A DNA stretch of 64,000 nt from Vulcanimicrobiota bacterium (GCA_963820825.1 CAWGBN010000002.1:1-64000); one strand, 5' to 3'. Counted from the first letter of the stretch, positions 7,939-15,909 are shown. Notes: generated by a model not told the origin, from the sequence alone. A program made the numbers and translations.

Positions 7939-8456
7939 GCGTCGGAAGAACTGCGCGGTTCGAGGAGATCCGCGGGCGGGTCGATGACGATCCGTCGCGC
8001 GGGCAGATCGATCTCGGAGACGATCGCACGCACCATCGGTACCATCGAGGCGCCTACGACGAGCATGTCGCTCGCCGGAAAATGTTCGACGCCGTCGACC
8101 GTTCCATACGACGTGCCGTCGCATCCTACGACCGCACAACCGACGAGGTCGTCGTCGAGATACTCACCCTCGGCGAGGCGAACGTTCGCGCGCGGCGCGT
8201 AGAGCACGGCGCCGGAGAGCGCCGCCGCCGCGCCGGCGTCATCGATTCCATCGATGCGAACGAGCAGCCGGCCTTTATGGGGTCGTACCGTCTCGATGCG
8301 CACCGTTCGTTCGTCGTCACCGGTCACGCATCTCAGCGCCGCACCGGTTAAAATAAGGGTGCGACCCGCACTGGTCGGGTCGCACTTCAACTCTCCGCGA
8401 ACGCCGAACGCGCCGGCAATACGTCCTACGACGACGGTTTCATTCGGCGTCTTCAC
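7935..8456 (-). CDS. rimM: ribosome maturation factor RimM
   Basis: VGRIAGAFGVRGELK, EGEY..DLVG, MVPMV; context after rpsP-khpA. Confidence 0.93.
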   Translation of the reverse strand: MKTPNETVVVGRIAGAFGVRGELKCDPTSAGRTLILTGAALRCVTGDDERTVRIETVRPHKGRLLVRIDGIDDAGAAAALSGAVLYAPRANVRLAEGEYLDDDLVGCAVVGCDGTSYGTVDGVEHFPASDMLVVGASMVPMVRAIVSEIDLPARRIVIDPPADLLEPRSSSDA

Positions 8457-8937
8457 CCTGTGCCGCTTCTTCGCTATCGAGAATGTCGACGGCAACGCGC
8501 CCTTCGGCCGTCGCGCGCACGACCGTGCGCAGCGCCTGCGCGACGCGTCCGCTGCGCCCGATCACTTTCCCCAAATCTTCGGGATCGACGATCAGCTCGA
8601 TCACCGGCTGAGCCTGCTCGTCGACGAAGAGCTCGACGCTGACGGACTCCGGCTTCTGCACGAGCTTACGCGCCAGGAAATCGAGCAGTTCGGTCGCGCG
8701 GCGATGTCCGGCCCAGGGATCGTCTCCCGCGCTAGAGCGTCGTTCGCGCCGCGGGGCCGGTCGCGGCGGCCGCGGAGCAGACTCCGTGCGCGGCGTGGGC
8801 TCTTTGCGCGCTGTGGGCTCCTTGCGCGGTGCGGACTCCTTGCGCGGCACCGACTCCTTGCGCGCCGTCGCTTTGCGCTCGGGCTCGTCGACGACCGTTT
8901 CGCTAAAGAGACCGAACTCGTCGTCGAACGAGCTCAC
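8440..8937 (-). CDS. khpA: KH-domain RNA-binding protein (KhpA/YlqC) with N-terminal extension
   Basis: [20 protein letters not shown] motif; rpsP-khpA-rimM synteny; GTG start at 8937 inferred. Confidence 0.85.
8771..8878 (-). repeat. 18-bp coding tandem repeat, about six RKE(S/P)xx units, in the KhpA N-terminus
   Basis: [35 protein letters not shown]. Confidence 0.8.
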
Positions 8938-9232
8938 GAGGCGCCCCCTCAGCGCTCTTCGGCGCACGCTTCGTCGTCGGGATCGGTCCGCGTTCCACGA
9001 GTCCCTGCTCGGCGAGAGGCGACGGACCGGATCGGACGGCTGCGCGCCCTTGGCAAGCCACTGGCGTCGCCTTCTCGTCGTCGACGACGACGGTTTTCGG
9101 CTCGGTGCGGGGATTGTAATGTCCCAGGATCTCGATGAATCGTCCGTCGCGCGGCGCGCGCGCGTCGGCAACGACGAAACGATAGGTGGGTTGTTTCTTC
9201 GCGCCCATCCGGCGCAACCTGATTCGTACCGT
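8934..9232 (-). CDS. rpsP: 30S ribosomal protein S16 (indels and ACG start, probably sequence errors)
   Basis: [40 protein letters not shown], then [10 protein letters not shown] in another frame. Confidence 0.9.
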
Positions 9233-9244
9233 ATACTTTCCTCG

Positions 9245-10554
9245 TTATAAACTCCGCCTGCTTCGGCTCAGCTGTTTGGTCATTTGGCGCGCCTGATCGA
9301 ACTGCTTCACGAGCCGGTTGACGTCGGATACCTGCGTGCCGCGAGCCGAGCGCAATTCGCTTGCGGCGCGACCGTTCAGGATCTCAGGGTTGCGTCGCTC
9401 GCGCGCGTCATCGAGCAGATGATCGCTTCGACTTTCGGCGAACGTCGCGCTCGTCGATTTCGAAGTTTTTCGGCAAGCGCCTTCGACAGACCCGGAATCA
9501 TCTTCATGATATCGTTCATCGAGCCCATTTTGCGCACTTGCCGCAACTGCGCGAGAAAATCGTCGAGCGTAAAGGTCTGTTTGCGGAGCTTCTGCTCGAG
9601 CTTCTTCGCCTGCTCCTCGGAGTAGACGTTCTGCGTCTTCTCGATGAGCGTGAGCACGTCGCCCATCCCGAGAATGCGCGATGCGATGCGGTCGGGGTGG
9701 AAGGCTTCGAGCGCGCTGACCTTCTCGCCGACGCCGACGAACTTGATCGGCGCACCCGTGACGCTGAAGATCGAGAGGGCTGCGCCGCCGCGAGCGTCGC
9801 CGTCCATCTTGGTGAGGATGACGCCGGTGATGCCGAGCCGGTCGTCGAAATCCCTTGGCGACGCTCGTCGCTTCTTGACCGGTCATCGCGTCGGCGACGA
9901 AGAGGATTTCTTTGGGCGGCGTGCGCGGCTCTTGATGCGCTCGAGTTCGTCCATGAGCGCGTCGTCGATCTGCAGGCGGCCCGCCGTGTCGAGGATGACC
10001 GTCGAGAGCCCGAGCCGCCGAGCCTCGGCGACGCCGCGCTCCGCGATGCCGACGGGATCGCCGGAGCGTCTCCGAATAGACGGACACGTCCGTCTGCTTG
10101 CCGAGCGTCTTTAGCTGCTCGATCGCGGCCGGACGATTGCACGTCCGCGGCAATCAGCAGCGAGCGCCGGCCTTGCTCCTTGAGACGCAGCGCGAGCTTC
10201 GCCGGCGTGCGTCGTCTTTCCGGAACCCTGCAAACCGACGAGCATGATCACCGACGGTGGCGCGTCCGAGAACTGCAGGCGGGCAGCGGCGCCGCCGAGC
10301 AGCGAGACGAGCTCGTCGTGGACGATCTTGATGACCGACTGTGCCGGGGTGAGCGACGCCATGACGTCGGCGCCGACGGCTCGCTCTTTGATCCGTGCGA
10401 CGAACTCTTTGGCGACGCCGAGGTTGACGTCGGCCTCGAGCAGGGCGACGCGAACCTCACGCGCGACGTCGTTGACGTCCGCTTCGGTGAGCCGCCCGCG
10501 ACTGCCCAGGCGCGCAAAAATGGCGCCGAGGCGTTCGCTCAGAGCTTCGAGCAA
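9245..10554 (-). CDS. ffh: signal recognition particle protein Ffh (several apparent frameshifts)
   Basis: [51 protein letters not shown] spread over different frames. Confidence 0.92.
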
Positions 10555-10557
10555 AGG

Positions 10558-10815
10558 CTAACCCGCCGGCTTCGGAGCGGTCGATTCGATCCTGGCGACG
10601 GCATCGCCGACGGTCTTGATCTTCTCCGCTTCTTCATCGGGAATATCGATGTTGAACTCGGTCTCGAACGCCATGACCAGTTCGACCTGGTCCAAGGAGT
10701 CCGCGCCGAGGTCTTCGGTGATCGACGCCTCAGGCGTCACTTCCGATTCGTCGACGCCGAGCTGCTCGACGATGATCTTCTTGACCTTATCGAAGGTGGT
10801 TGAATCAGTTGACAT
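10558..10815 (-). CDS. acpP: acyl carrier protein
   Basis: [17 protein letters not shown]. Confidence 0.97.
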
Positions 10816-10843
10816 CAGTCTCCCTACGCGCTCGTGCGCCCTT

Positions 10844-11590
10844 TCACATCAAAAAACCGCCATCGACGACGATGGTTTGGCCGGTCACGTACCGCGCTGC
10901 TTCCGAGCAAAGGAACGTCACCACTCCGCTGACGTCGTCAACGGCTTCCCGGCTCGTCCGAGCGGCATACTCGCCAAGTACGCGGTGCGGGCCTCGTCGG
11001 GCATAGACTCGGTCATGGCAGTCTCGATGAAGCCCGGTGCGACGGCGTTGACTCTTATATTCCGCGACCCCAATTCCTTTGCTACCGACTTTGCCAAGCC
11101 GAGCAGGCCGGCCTTGGCTGCGGCGTATGCGGCCTGACCCGCGTTGCCGCAAGCCCGACGATGCTCTCATCAGGACGATCGAGCCGCCGGCGGCTCATCA
11201 TCGGCTGTGCGACGGCGCTGACGAGATAGAACGCCGACTTGAGATTGACGTCGAGCATGACGATCGAGTGCTCGGGCTTTGAGCCGAACAACAGCCCGTC
11301 TCCGACTTGGCCGGCGTTGGCGATTGCGAAGTCGATCCGCCCGAAGCGCTCCAACGCCGCGCCGGTCTGCGTTGACCGCCGCTTCGATCGCTCACGTCGC
11401 CTTCGAAGACGTGTGCGACGCACACTCGGCCGACGTTTGCGCCGGCAGGCAGCGCTCTCGTCGAGCGCGCTCACGTTCGTCCGACGAGCGCGACGTCGGC
11501 GCCGTGACGCGCGAGCTCGACCGCGATCGCTTTGCCGATACCACGACTGGCGCCGGTGATGAGTGCGTCTTTCCCGTGAAGAACGCTCCC
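10844..11590 (-). CDS. fabG: 3-oxoacyl-ACP reductase (apparent frameshifts)
   Basis: [22 protein letters not shown] (split frame), [12 protein letters not shown]; start approximate. Confidence 0.85.
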
Positions 11591-12529
11591 TCGACTGCGC
11601 CTTCGATCGTGCACGCAGGCGTTCCACGCCGGCTTCGTGACGGTCACTCCGCCGCGGTCTCGCTGCGCACGTTCGGCATTCGCCGAACGAGCGGGATCAG
11701 GACGCCGCTCGCGCCGAACTCGACGACGATGTCGGGATCGTCGGTGAGGATTCGTTCCGCCGTGTCGTGCCAGCGACTTCGTCGTCACCGAACGATTAGA
11801 TTGCGCTTGATCGTCTCGGGTCGCGATAGGGACGCCCGTCGACGTTCGATATCACGACGATCGGCGGCAGCGAAAAGCGGCTCGCTTCGACCGCCGGACG
11901 AACGCGTGCGCGCGCGGGTTCCATGAGCACGCTATGCCACGCGCCCGAGACGTTGAGCGGCACGACGCGCTTGGCGCCGGCTTCGAGCATCGCCTGGCCC
12001 GCACTCTGAACCGCATCGAGCTCGCCGCTGATTACGATCTGCGTCGGCGAGTTGAAGTTCGCCAGTCGCGACGCGGCCGCGATCTTGCATGGCGTCGAGC
12101 ACCTGGCGAACTTGCACCGCTTCGAGACCGAGGATCGCCGACATTCCGCCGCGAGCGCGCTGCGCCGCCGCCTGCATCGCCTGACCGCGCTCGCTGACGA
12201 TGTGCAACGCATCTTCGAACGAAAGCGACCCCGCGACGACGAGGCTGCACAGCTCGGCAAAGGAGTGGCCGGCGGTGACGACCGGCGTGAAGCCTTCGCA
12301 ACGGCGACAATACAGCGCGAGATTCGTCGTGAAGATCGCCGGCTGGCTAAACTCGGTCTCGCGCAGCCGTTCTTCCGGACCTTCGCGCTGCAGAGCGAGC
12401 AGATCGTATCCGAGTACTCGCCTCCGCCCGATCGAAGAGTCTCGCTGCGGCGGGCGCGCTTGCGGCAACGTCGCTGCCCATGCCGACCATTGCGAGCCCT
12501 GACCGGGGAATGACGACGGCAACGCGCAC
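11590..12529 (-). CDS. fabD: malonyl-CoA:ACP transacylase (apparent frameshifts)
   Basis: FPGQGSQ, SQPAI, AGHSF, ANFNSPTQIVISG, VSGAWHS; 3' end approximate. Confidence 0.88.
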
Positions 12530-13517
12530 TACGCGGCCCAGCGCCAGGCGACGGCGCCCCACGAGAGACCTGCACCGAACGCAACGAAGATAATGAGATC
12601 CTCGGGCTTGATCAGGCCGGCGCGCACCGTCTCGGAGAGCGCGATCGGAATCGACGCTGCCGAGGTGTTGCCGTATTCGGCGATGTTGACGACGACTTTC
12701 TCTTCGGGCAGATCGAGGTATCGCGCCGTCGCGTCGATGATCCGCCGATTCGCCTGATGCGGAACCAGAAAGGTAACGTCGCTCTTGTTCAGCCCGGCCT
12801 TCTGCAGCACGGTCTCGGTCGCTTCGACCATTCGCTGAACGGCCAGCTTGAACGTTTCGCGACCCTGCATGTGGATGAGATGGACCTTTGCGTCGAGCGC
12901 GGCGTGGTCGAGCGGCCGTCGCGCGCCGCTGCCCTGCGCGTAGAGCAGCTCGGGCCGGCTTGCATCGGCGCCCAAAGCCGAGGCGAGAAAGCTGTCTTCG
13001 GAGTTCTGCTCGAGGATGACGGCGCCTGCGCCGTCGCCGAAGAGGATCGCCGTCGCGCGGTCTTCCTTGTCGAGAATTTTCGAGAGCGTCTCCGCGCCGA
13101 TGAGCATGATGCGCCGGTAGACACCCGAGCGAATCATACCCGACGCGACCGTAAGCCCATAAATGAATCCGCTGCACGCGATTCCGATGTCGAAGGCGGG
13201 CTTCTCCGTGACGCCGAGCTTCGAGGCGACGAGACACGCCGTCGCCGGAAAATATAATCCGGCGTGACGGTCGCGACGATGAAGCAATCGATTTCCTGCG
13301 GTTGCAATCCGGCGTGCACGAGGGCGGCGCTGCCGGCGGCCGTTGCCAAATCGCTCGTCGCTTCCTCTTCGGAGGTCCAGTGACGGCGCTTCATTCCGGT
13401 GCGAGTCGTGATCCAGTCGTCGGTCGTATCCAACCACGCCTCAAGGTCGTGGTTGCTGACGATGCGTGGAGGCGCGTAATGGCCGACGCCGACGATCTTC
13501 ACGCCAGAAGAGAGCAC
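12529..13517 (-). CDS. fabH: beta-ketoacyl-ACP synthase III (one apparent frameshift near 13250)
   Basis: WITTRTG, ACSGF, LFGDGAGA, PHQAN, GNTSAAS, FGAGLSWG. Confidence 0.93.
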
Positions 13518-14261: not shown

Positions 14262-14291
14262 ATTCTAGAACCCGCCGCCGCGCCTTGTCAA
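14262..14291 (-). promoter_or_regulatory. sigma70-type promoter for the yceD-rpmF-fab operon
   Basis: TTGACA-N18-TAGAAT on the minus strand. Confidence 0.65.
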
Positions 14292-14321
14292 ACACGCCCG
14301 ACCGGGGGATAGAAGGCTGCC

Positions 14322-14969
14322 ATGAGCATCGATCCAACCGCCTCGCGCCTCGCCGGACAAGGCGTCGCATTTGCCCCGCAAATCGCCAATGCCGCGCGGC
14401 GCTACGGTCTCGATCCCGGCCTCCTGGCGGCGGTCGCCGCACAAGAGACGGGCGGACCCGATACCAACGCCGGGCACAACGTTGTGGGCGACGGCGGCCA
14501 TGGCCACGGCATCTTCCAAATCGACGACCGGTGGCATCCGTTCGCCTCGACCGCCGGGGCTATGGATCCGGCTCAGAATGCCGACTATGCGGCCGGAATG
14601 ATCTCCGGCCTCGTCAAGCGCTACGGCGGCAACCTGCACGAGGCGCTCTCCGCCTATAACGCCGGGTCGCCGTCGGCGACGGGAACGAAGACGCGCTGGT
14701 CGGACGGCAGCGAGCTCGGATACGCGGACTCGGTGCTGCGGCATTACGACCGGCTGACCGGCGAGTCGCCGCAATCCTCGGCGATCGCCGAGTCGAGCGC
14801 GACGGTCGCAAGCGTCGGCGCGCTGGAATCCCGCGCGCAGAGCCTGCCGCCGATGCCGGCGATTCCGCCGCCCATCGCGATGATGATGGCGCCGCACCCC
14901 GCTCGCACCTTCCACGAGCAAACGACGGACTACGTCGCCTTGTTCGACAACGACGACAAGAACTCATAA
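14322..14969 (+). CDS. lytic transglycosylase (SLT/goose-lysozyme-like domain) with unique C-terminal tail; no signal peptide
   Basis: AARRYGLDPGLLAAVAAQET (catalytic Glu), GIFQI, DPAQN, ALSAYNAG, YADSV. Confidence 0.88.
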   Translation: MSIDPTASRLAGQGVAFAPQIANAARRYGLDPGLLAAVAAQETGGPDTNAGHNVVGDGGHGHGIFQIDDRWHPFASTAGAMDPAQNADYAAGMISGLVKRYGGNLHEALSAYNAGSPSATGTKTRWSDGSELGYADSVLRHYDRLTGESPQSSAIAESSATVASVGALESRAQSLPPMPAIPPPIAMMMAPHPARTFHEQTTDYVALFDNDDKNS

Positions 14970-14983
14970 AGGAGAAAGCAGAC

Positions 14984-15289
14984 GTGTCATTCTTGCCTTC
15001 AATCGAGGGAGCGCTCTCGGCAAAGCCGCTCGCCGGCGCGATCGCCGGCACGGTGAGCGGCGCGCTCGAATCGCCCAAGACGGGTGCAGCGCTTTCGAGC
15101 GCGCTCGGCGGCTCGTTGCAGAACTCGGCAATTGCCGAGGTCGGGAATCTGATCTCATCGCTCGGCACGCTCTCGGCACAAGCGCAGAGTCTGCCGCTCA
15201 GCCCGCCGAGCCTACCGGGCTTGCCGCAGAGTCAGAGCTACAAGCCGCAATCGACCGATTATACGCAGTTCAGCGACGACTCGAACTGA
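14984..15289 (+). CDS. small hypothetical protein sharing its C-terminal tail with the upstream transglycosylase
   Basis: AAAGGAG RBS; SAIAE...AQSLP...QSTDY matches the SLT tail. Confidence 0.8.
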   Translation: MSFLPSIEGALSAKPLAGAIAGTVSGALESPKTGAALSSALGGSLQNSAIAEVGNLISSLGTLSAQAQSLPLSPPSLPGLPQSQSYKPQSTDYTQFSDDSN

Positions 15290-15316
15290 TCGTCACCCAT
15301 TAAAGGAGCAACGAAC

Positions 15317-15649
15317 ATGGCATTCCTGCTTCCAGTCCTCGAAGGTCTTGGCTCGGGCCTGCTCGGCAACGCGATCGGCGGCGCGCTCGGATCGGGCACC
15401 GCCGGCAACGCCGAGAACTCCGCAATGAACGCGCTGAACACGCAAGACGAAACCTTTCAGCTCGGAATGTACGCTTCGGAAGTTCAGAACCAAGAACAGC
15501 TTCAGATGCAATCGGAAGTCTTCGATCAGATGATGGACGAGCGCAGCGAGAATATGCGCGAGGTCGACACCCTTCGCAACGTCGATATGGCGCAGCGCAA
15601 GATGGATGACTCCATCACCAAGAAGTTCATCCAATCGATCACTGAATGA
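15317..15649 (+). CDS. small helical protein, Hrp-pilin/T3SS-filament-like (tentative)
   Basis: strong AAAGGAG RBS; Gly-rich N-terminus, Q/M/E-rich helical C-terminus ending DDSITKKFIQSI. Confidence 0.7.
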   Translation: MAFLLPVLEGLGSGLLGNAIGGALGSGTAGNAENSAMNALNTQDETFQLGMYASEVQNQEQLQMQSEVFDQMMDERSENMREVDTLRNVDMAQRKMDDSITKKFIQSITE

Positions 15650-15909
15650 CGAGCGCGGCGCTTCCTCCGCTTCGCAACGAACGCACGGCCGCGGCGCGCG
15701 GTACCCACTCCGCGCCTCGCGGCAGCTCCGCCTCGCCCGACCTAAATCCCGACGACCAAACGACGATCGCCGCGCAGCGCGGCGCCTTCGACTACGAAGC
15801 CGCCGAACGGGCCGAAATCGAGCGCGAACACGAAGCGCTCGAAGCACTGTTGATGGCCTTCCTCAAAAATGAGGACGAGATCATGAAGAAGTGGATCTCG
15901 CTGATTTAG
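15646..15909 (+). CDS. small helical protein, paralogue of the preceding gene
   Basis: ATGA overlap; last 40 aa align ungapped to the preceding protein. Confidence 0.75.
   Translation: MTSAALPPLRNERTAAARGTHSAPRGSSASPDLNPDDQTTIAAQRGAFDYEAAERAEIEREHEALEALLMAFLKNEDEIMKKWISLI

Follow-up and report, generated by a model that had tools for sequence, protein, structure and literature searches.

How might four closely packed genes, one encoding a putative cell wall hydrolase and two encoding small helical paralogues, serve a bacterium when none of their products carries a recognizable Sec signal? This question is raised by positions 14322-15909 of a 64,000-nt stretch of DNA (hereafter, the window; CAWGBN010000002.1:1-64000 of GCA_963820825.1), which derives from a bacterium of the Vulcanimicrobiota (Eremiobacterota), close to Ca. 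Cybelea. The genes are referred to as g1 to g4 and the source genome of the window as G000, and coordinates are those of the whole window. Our analyses suggest that this cassette probably encodes cargo secreted by a type III system not described so far, i.e., a reduced, flagellum-derived export machine whose genes lie elsewhere in the genome.

Composition of the cassette

A preliminary description of the locus had reported four co-oriented, packed genes divergent from yceD, with two AAAGGAG ribosome-binding sites (RBSs) and one ATGA overlap, all of which were confirmed by the open reading frames (ORFs) and the sequence. g1 (14322-14969, + strand) encodes 215 aa, consisting of a GH23 (SLT-fold) domain (residues 1-146) and a 69-residue, Pro-rich tail. 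g2 (14984-15289, +) has a GTG start and encodes 101 aa, in which a g3-type N-terminus is joined to the g1 tail. g3 (15317-15649, +; 110 aa), the putative major subunit, has a Gly-rich, variable N-terminus followed by a nearly invariant C-terminal helix, and its paralogue, g4 (15646-15909, +; 87 aa), has a Pro/Ala/Arg-rich N-terminus and a conserved C-terminal helix. The RBS of g2, a duplicated copy recognized by sequence and alignment, lies at 14968-14974 (+) and that of g3, read from the sequence, at 15302-15308 (+); g4 is translationally coupled to g3 by the ATGA at 15646-15649. The earlier statement that Sec signals are lacking also held, as judged by residue composition rather than by a signal-peptide predictor: the cassette proteins start without K or R among their first 8 residues and lack any long hydrophobic stretch.

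A reduced, flagellum-derived export machine

As had been anticipated, an export apparatus is encoded elsewhere: a flagellum-derived type III machine was found in G000, scattered over at least three loci. The main export cluster (C8:197.9-209.7 kb) encodes a 72-aa protein in the FlgB position, FlgC, FliE, FliF with a FliG middle domain (a FliF-FliG fusion), FliH, and FliI, continues with a 199-aa ORF, a FlgF/G-like protein, a FliM/N-like protein, FliN, and FliP, and ends with metF, FliQ, FliR, FlhB, and FlhA; the FlgB-position protein was named by position (no family match) and FlhB was read by eye from its NPQH motif. A second export locus (L159; C8:294644-297153, - strand) encodes a FlgF-like protein, FlgG, a 64-aa FlgJ-N-like ORF (named by eye, no Pfam match), and a sigma-28-like factor, which is our reading of a sigma-70-family factor. 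FliJ is encoded at C7:73.2 kb (E 2.2e-11). The export gate, MS ring, and rod are therefore all present in the gene set, as are core SctRSTUVN homologues and an SctP-like ruler. The last of these is the 199-aa ORF, which folds like the FliK/SctP switch domain (top Foldseek matches, FliK C-domain, E 2.5e-4, and PscP, E 3.9e-4) and a homologue of which matched Pfam Flg_hook (E 7.9e-5). Most components scored as flagellar, with FlhA at 595 vs. 474 bits for SctV and FliP at 221 vs. 186 for SctR; SctN scored 333 vs. 308 for FliI.

Only one FlhA-family gene and one fliP were found in G000. FHIPEP was detected in 77/82 genomes of the class, and flagellated members have a second, higher-scoring copy. 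The reduced machine is thus retained by nearly all genomes of this class, a widespread group of soil bacteria, in many of them in the absence of a flagellum. Flagellin, sought by HMM, was over the cut-off in none of 25 other genomes of the genus and was not found in G000; weak flagellin matches in the genus proved to be EmrA-type efflux adaptors in the 4 that were checked. Proteins of one flagellated relative gave no tblastn match in G000 for hook, junction, cap, L/P-ring, MotA/B, or full FliG, in a test that also missed FliJ and in a genome that is 85% complete. No secretin was found in the three machine loci, and a single secretin-like motif occurs elsewhere (C3:54141). In 10 relatives' loci that were fetched, the cluster adjoins secD. 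By its gene content, then, the machine appears to possess a length ruler and a switch without any known distal subunit.

Two described cases resemble this machine. Early-branching, non-flagellar type III systems of Myxococcales are likewise flagellum-derived, lack a motor, a secretin, and a recognizable SctF, and occur in free-living bacteria; according to Abby and Rocha (2012; PMC3459982), they lack FlgBCDEK and FliE/G. In contrast, the machine described here keeps FliE, FlgB/C-like proteins, FlgF/G, FliF, and a sigma-28-like factor. Because of these retained parts, and because most components score as flagellar, it would represent a reduction independent of that in Myxococcales. In the non-flagellated Chlamydiaceae, FliF likewise carries a FliG middle domain at its end; Chlamydia, however, retains a complete injectisome and only a handful of flagellar genes (Bergeron 2016; PMC4768692), whereas gate, rod, and ruler are kept here and G000 has its single FlhA-family gene.

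Several further features of the export loci were observed. The sigma-28-like factor occurs in 183/192 genomes of the family, although the genus has no flagellin. FliJ and a 66-aa FlbD-like ORF (named by eye; C7:73014-73657, -) are the sole genes kept in G000 where a flagellated relative has a large flagellar cluster. The export ATPase is ~350 aa in the window's genus vs. 416-460 aa in other genera (L079:5875-6918; L097:12602-13657), and its N-terminal domain appears to have been lost. Many genomes have, ahead of their first export gene (L079, upstream of 9669; L139-L158), short repeated motifs, CGGCAAC and GTTCATC/GTTCCTCAT, ~20 nt apart, that look like a regulator-binding array. Five other genera encode, within the export cluster, a signal-bearing protein of 530-590 aa with two aspartyl-protease domains (L089:12838-14493, L090, L092, L093, L096), and metF lies inside the cluster in most genomes of the family, remaining after cluster deletion. 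Other classes of the phylum have up to 9 FlhA/SctV-family matches per genome, many without flagellin, and each such genome may encode several type III systems that are so far undescribed.

Probable association of the cassette with the machine

Among 192 genomes of the family, a FliF-type protein was found in 174 and g3 in 179; the searches thus failed to detect FliF in 18 genomes and g3 in 13, and they missed the sigma factor in 9. Judged by flanking sequence, 13 of the 18 FliF-less genomes represent true deletion or decay, gaps are likely in G252, G287, and G291, G035 gave an ambiguous picture, and the unpublished G249 was left out. The cassette is clearly damaged in 8 of these 13 export-less genomes. 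In G140, g4 is a pseudogene and g1 and g3 were not found; G268 has a 24-residue deletion in the invariant helix of g3; G267 has a stop in g1; G036 has frameshifts in g1 and g3; G239 has a frameshift, a stop, and an insertion; and G219, G202, and G273 carry element insertions. Another of the 13, G102, has a Leu-to-Pro change in the cassette, and G140 and G268 are also without the sigma factor. Within genus g17, the cassette was intact in 5/5 export-bearing genomes and damaged or altered in 3/4 export-less genomes. When g3 alone was considered, it was broken in 6/13 export-less vs. ~20/168 export-bearing genomes (P = 0.004), a comparison in which kin are not independent and in which the ~20 is an approximate, partly inspected tally that probably includes some long-read indels.

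Other observations weigh against such a link. Since both traits are near-universal in the class, co-occurrence alone says little. Four of the 13 export-less genomes (G134, G170, G171, G008) have an intact cassette, g3 is also broken in the roughly 20 export-bearing genomes, and in the window's genus the breakage of g3 (2/6 export-less vs. 12/51 export-bearing) did not differ (P = 0.46). Neither was dN/dS relaxed in the six export-less genomes of the genus (g3, 0.019 vs. 0.020; SLT, 0.083 vs. 0.119), and recombinase elements often split g3 also where the machine is intact (see below). In the loci examined, the cassette was never beside the export cluster, and no promoter shared by cassette and export genes was found. 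A conserved, promoter-like element at 14301-14313 (+), 8 nt before the g1 start, is kept ahead of g1 or g3 in each of the three families and is not specific to export genes; its matrix ranked export-gene upstream regions at background, and the motif also precedes ordinary genes, e.g., comEA-like and thiG-like ORFs (names by eye).

The export losses themselves are recent, since export-bearing G012 nests among the export-less genomes of the genus and G170 and G171 keep remnants of the cluster. FliJ lingers in the same way, being found in export-less G036, G102, G134, G170, and G171 and not in G140. The raw co-absence of FliF and g3 (4/192, P = 0.023; 3/190, P = 0.079 without two unpublished genomes) was not used, because G291 ends at a contig end, g3 of G268 is decayed rather than absent, and several g3-negatives are assembly gaps. 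The co-occurrence with export genes that had been predicted was thus borne out in that loss of the apparatus is often accompanied by cassette damage, and failed in the four genomes that hold an intact cassette without it. On balance, we consider it likely that the cassette is linked to the machine.

The g3/g4 family and its likeness to pilins

g3 and g4 had been said to share a 40-aa helix. The homology was upheld, with a local score of 66 (0/1000 shuffles as high) and a profile-profile match between the g3-family (A2) and g4-family (A3) alignments of 99.0% in hhalign (E 4.8e-18, 58 columns), but the common helix is longer, at 51-58 residues. Their sequences mark g3 and g4 as paralogues within an unannotated family whose N-terminus varies and whose helical C-terminus hardly changes: no Pfam or NCBIfam family fits g2-g4, and the last 70 codons of g3 have a dN/dS of 0.02 (351 pairs, window's genus). 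Members are 87-140 aa with an N-terminus that is not basic-hydrophobic, and most g3 homologues are preceded by a strong RBS.

The same anatomy is found in Hrp pilins (Xanthomonas HrpE, Pseudomonas/Pantoea HrpA) and SctF, which are small, lack a Sec signal, and have a variable N-terminal and a conserved helical C-terminal half; in Xanthomonas HrpE, the N-terminus also contains the secretion signal (PMC6026121). These proteins are in addition the language-model look-alikes of g3 and g4. In the ESM Atlas, g4 resembled an HrpE-like cluster (0.92, 191/256 features, family on 55% of members) and g3 resembled HrpA pilin (0.89, 182 features; a lead only), and both were weakly like needle clusters (0.85, 0.78), at recognition values that lie below the reliable level. 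The Atlas placed the g3/g4 clusters themselves in Vulcanimicrobiota.

Unlike the Hrp pilins and SctF, however, g3 and g4 are two paralogues encoded far from the export genes, their partner machine keeps flagellar rod genes and has no linked secretin that was found, and they share no detectable sequence homology with these subunits. Several results count against a filament. AlphaFold modelled the g3 monomer with helices at residues 4-23 and 28-109 (the latter of 82 residues; pLDDT 65, pTM 0.23), i.e., as one long, low-confidence helix and not the helical hairpin that had been expected. Pfam matches of 44 g3 and 40 g4 members included no HrpA or needle family, a real HrpA scored 6.6 bits against the g3 profile (9/300 shuffles as high), and Pantoea HrpA reached 0.3% in hhalign. 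Nor was an outer-membrane ring gene found in the machine's loci. The homology test is insensitive, in that even an annotated HrpA scored no better than E 0.079 against the Pfam model of its own family.

Foldseek of the g3 model against the PDB returned 0 matches, a VIA-align wide search with that model returned generic long helices only (best Z 7.1), and a PDB sequence search with A2 returned 3 non-significant matches. Twenty-one filament, rod, and stalk proteins did no better, or little better, than shuffled sequences against the g3 profile, which gave 0.2% with the family of the 72-aa FlgB-like protein and 0.2% with a relative's flagellin. A complex prediction for g3 with g4 residues 28-87 gave no verdict (score 0.00), and a search of plasmids with g3 gave one chance match. 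A central PxxP turn is a feature of SctF needles, and the conserved region of A2 and A3 has no conserved proline. Membership in WXG100 was rejected, the central WXG motif being absent from A2 and A3 and the sole W lying 3-7 residues from the C-terminus. No match to SctF, SctI, HrpA, FlgB, or WXG100 was thus obtained by sequence or fold, and membership of g3 and g4 in HrpA, HrpE, or SctF is not established. What survives of the suggestion that they are filament-like subunits is the pilin-like anatomy and the resemblance to HrpA, HrpE, and needle clusters, set against the lack of a match to known filaments. By analogy, the cassette may work like an Hrp pilin plus a secreted wall hydrolase.

A goose-type lysozyme-like enzyme

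g1 matched Pfam SLT (E 1.1e-10), and all 6 matches in a PDB sequence search were g-type lysozymes (best E 1.4e-5). Alignment with these enzymes showed that the catalytic Glu and the hairpin aspartates are retained, and the corresponding motifs (QET, GD.G.G.G, and QIDD) occur in 119/119 listed homologues, whose source labels were Ca. Cybelea, Ca. Tumulicola, Baltobacteraceae, and Eremiobacteraeota, with one labelled Binatia. In goose-type (GH23) lysozyme, the catalytic Glu helix is likewise accompanied by a hairpin, in which Asp97 positions the catalytic water and is only partly conserved across GH23 (PMC2976769). g1 differs from it in being bacterial and without a signal peptide, and in having a Pro-rich C-terminal tail, a duplicate of which forms part of a separate gene. 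With EtgA, IagB, HrpH, and FlgJ, g1 shares the GH23/SLT fold with its catalytic Glu, but it has the g-type hairpin motif, and its match to the IagB family model (32 bits, cut-off 208) falls short of membership. HrpH and FlgJ are exported by their own machines, a route that g1 may share; for HrpH, the literature consulted did not confirm the comparison.

g1 does not lie in the export cluster, and a different, conventional SLT follows fliI in the clusters of G143, G037, and G182. g1 thus resembles goose-type lysozyme more closely than assembly transglycosylases and would be a muramidase. Because of this g-type look, and because other genomes provide the export cluster with a transglycosylase of its own, g1 is more likely cargo than a wall-opener, and its earlier designation as a dedicated wall-opening transglycosylase is not sustained.

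Proposed mechanism and alternatives

From the gene set we infer an order of events in which the rod would be completed, and the FliK/FlhB switch would then admit later substrates. g3 would be exported through its variable N-terminus and would polymerise on the rod by its invariant helix, giving a tube of the needle or Hrp-pilus kind where a flagellum would have its hook and filament; g4, coupled and weakly translated, may be a minor subunit or an adaptor. Since g1 has no Sec signal and would be useless in the cytoplasm, it would leave by the same route, cutting peptidoglycan as a g-type muramidase in either the cell's own wall during assembly or a neighbour's wall. g2, which starts with an export leader of the g3 type, may deliver the g1 tail in a second copy. 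Given a link to the machine, a filament role for g3 seems fairly likely; the whole proposition, that the cassette supplies substrates of the reduced machine with g3 replacing hook and filament, is one on which we lean slightly toward doubt.

The same machine could also export these proteins without their being the filament, in which case g3 and g4 would be translocon-like or pore-forming helices, g1 an antibacterial muramidase, and the whole a kit for contact-killing or predation. Co-decay of the cassette with the machine fits this equally well, as do the likeness of g1 to g-type lysozymes, hairpin aspartates included, and the cluster's own SLT in G143, G037, and G182, so that g1 would not be needed for the cell's own wall. 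The N-termini of g3 homologues are, moreover, GxxxG-rich with mildly hydrophobic stretches. That hydrophobicity, however, is just mild (best 19-residue mean 1.42), g3 is far shorter than known translocators, and in the loci examined no immunity gene was found beside g1, which is itself absent from two outer families where g3 is kept. Considering also that an invariant C-terminus would suit a polymer core better than an effector, we regard this explanation as unlikely. A cassette unrelated to type III export is, in our judgement, similarly improbable. g3 and g4 would then form a cytoplasmic or membrane-associated coiled-coil pair (a scaffold, or one with a division or developmental role) and g1 would exit otherwise, which would account for the intact, selected cassettes in four export-less genomes with their unrelaxed dN/dS, for the lack of linkage, shared promoter, and homology to filament proteins, and for the frequent splitting by serine recombinases regardless of export status, such splitting being known for competence and developmental genes. 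It would leave unexplained the point-type decay (stops, frameshifts, and a 24-residue deletion) in G140, G268, G267, G036, and G239, all export-less, how a wall hydrolase lacking a Sec signal finds the export route that it needs, and why the machine has a ruler and a switch but no known late substrate.

The notion that g3 and g4 are displaced ATPase stalk proteins of the FliJ/SctO type arose from one FliJ that, compared with the final 45 columns of the g3 profile, gave a z of 4.3 (0/200 shuffles as high), in 1 of 42 such tests, and from the lack of a fliJ beside fliI in the cluster. A profile of 29 FliJ sequences, however, gave 0.4% and 0.1% in hhalign, with 2/40 and 32/40 column shuffles as high, and a true FliJ is encoded elsewhere in G000; this idea is largely refuted and highly improbable. 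Returning to g3 as a replacement for hook and filament, a bolder and doubtful extension is that the whole class represents a second, independent conversion of flagellum to injectisome caught half-way, in which gate, rod, and ruler were kept and hook, filament, and motor dropped. A needle or pilus with g3 as major and g4 as minor subunit would deliver a goose-type lysozyme to other bacteria, and elements integrating in g3 may switch the appendage off, or on by excision.

Origin and range of the cassette

The g4 profile detected 81/82 genomes of the class (including G000) and 0/69 of the rest of the phylum; the class set includes one unpublished genome, G048, and no claim depends on unpublished genomes. 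Against 1.84 billion representatives, the g3 profile retrieved 200 proteins, and the 115 weakest of the 150 matches listed were all g3- or g4-like or fragments thereof. Three weak matches to g3 outside the class were rejected, as they had no profile match. The arrangement of the loci suggests that the cassette grew stepwise. In the outer family, a single gene is divergent from rpmE-prfA (14/15 loci; the 15th is only a partial match), and in the sister family, g3 and g4 are divergent from yceD (5/5 loci). Other genera of the window's family have SLT, g3, and g4 (22/26 loci), and the window's genus has g1-g3 in 20/20 best-match loci, with g4 whole in 19 and cut by a contig end in the last. No g1 orthologue was found in 5 outer-family genomes (best E 6e-13). 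The suggestion of a lineage-conserved system therefore stands for the class as a whole and not for the four-gene form, which is genus-specific; likewise, synteny extends to three genes in other genera and shrinks to two or one, without a linked SLT, in other families.

The youngest member would be g2. The similarity of the g1 and g2 tails that had been pointed out is real (local alignment score 93, 0/1000 shuffles as high), and g2 also aligned with the g3 N-terminus (score 46, 2/1000 shuffles as high). At the DNA level, 14755-15110 aligns with 15102-15440, uninterrupted across stop, RBS, and start, and the DNA after the g1 and g2 stop codons aligns with a score of 58 (0/1000 shuffles). g2 is thus a chimera of the g3 N-terminus and the g1 tail that arose by tandem duplication of the g1/g3 junction, which explains both the gene and the repeated RBS. 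It is present in 20/20 loci of the genus (L001-L020). Another genus has a similar leader-plus-tail gene, and the g1 tail may therefore be useful apart from the enzyme.

Large serine-recombinase elements have integrated in g3 repeatedly, making it a hot spot for them. The gene is interrupted past codon 97 (or 77) in at least 11 relatives, and its 3' end resumes in frame at the end of recombinase ORFs of 503-517 aa (split-g3 loci L064, L068, L101, L107-L111, L114, L118, L119, L123, L225, and L227-L229). In the window, the corresponding integration site (codon 97/98; 15600-15615, +) is unoccupied. In G219, g4 is interrupted at the paralogous codon, with the same junction sequence.

Flanking region

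The yceD-rpmF operon, divergent from the cassette, is preceded by a putative sigma-70-like promoter (14262-14291, -; TTGACA, 18 nt, TAGAAT) that was read by sequence; both of its boxes are kept in most of the relatives' upstream regions compared. Further upstream in the window, ffh, fabG, fabD, and rpsP (8400-12600) look frameshift-split, probably as a result of long-read assembly errors; the cassette itself is intact.

Biological significance

The main text on a cultured member of the phylum describes type IV pili and no flagella and does not contain the word secretion (PMC9758169), and TXSSCAN was applied to another family in a second study (PMC9259500). Neither cassette nor machine was described in the open literature searched, nor were secretion systems of these soil bacteria; the supplements of PMC9758169 (Table S8) and PMC9259500, which lay outside that search, may list flagellar genes. 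Here, we probably have an undescribed type III secretion system with a new protein family. According to PMC3459982, only one lineage is known in which flagella gave rise to injectisomes, and Myxococcales provide the sole intermediate described there. If our interpretation is true, a rod and ruler without hook or filament, together with a new axial subunit, would constitute a second natural experiment on filament replacement, and these abundant soil bacteria could be assigned a possible function in attacking or contacting other cells.

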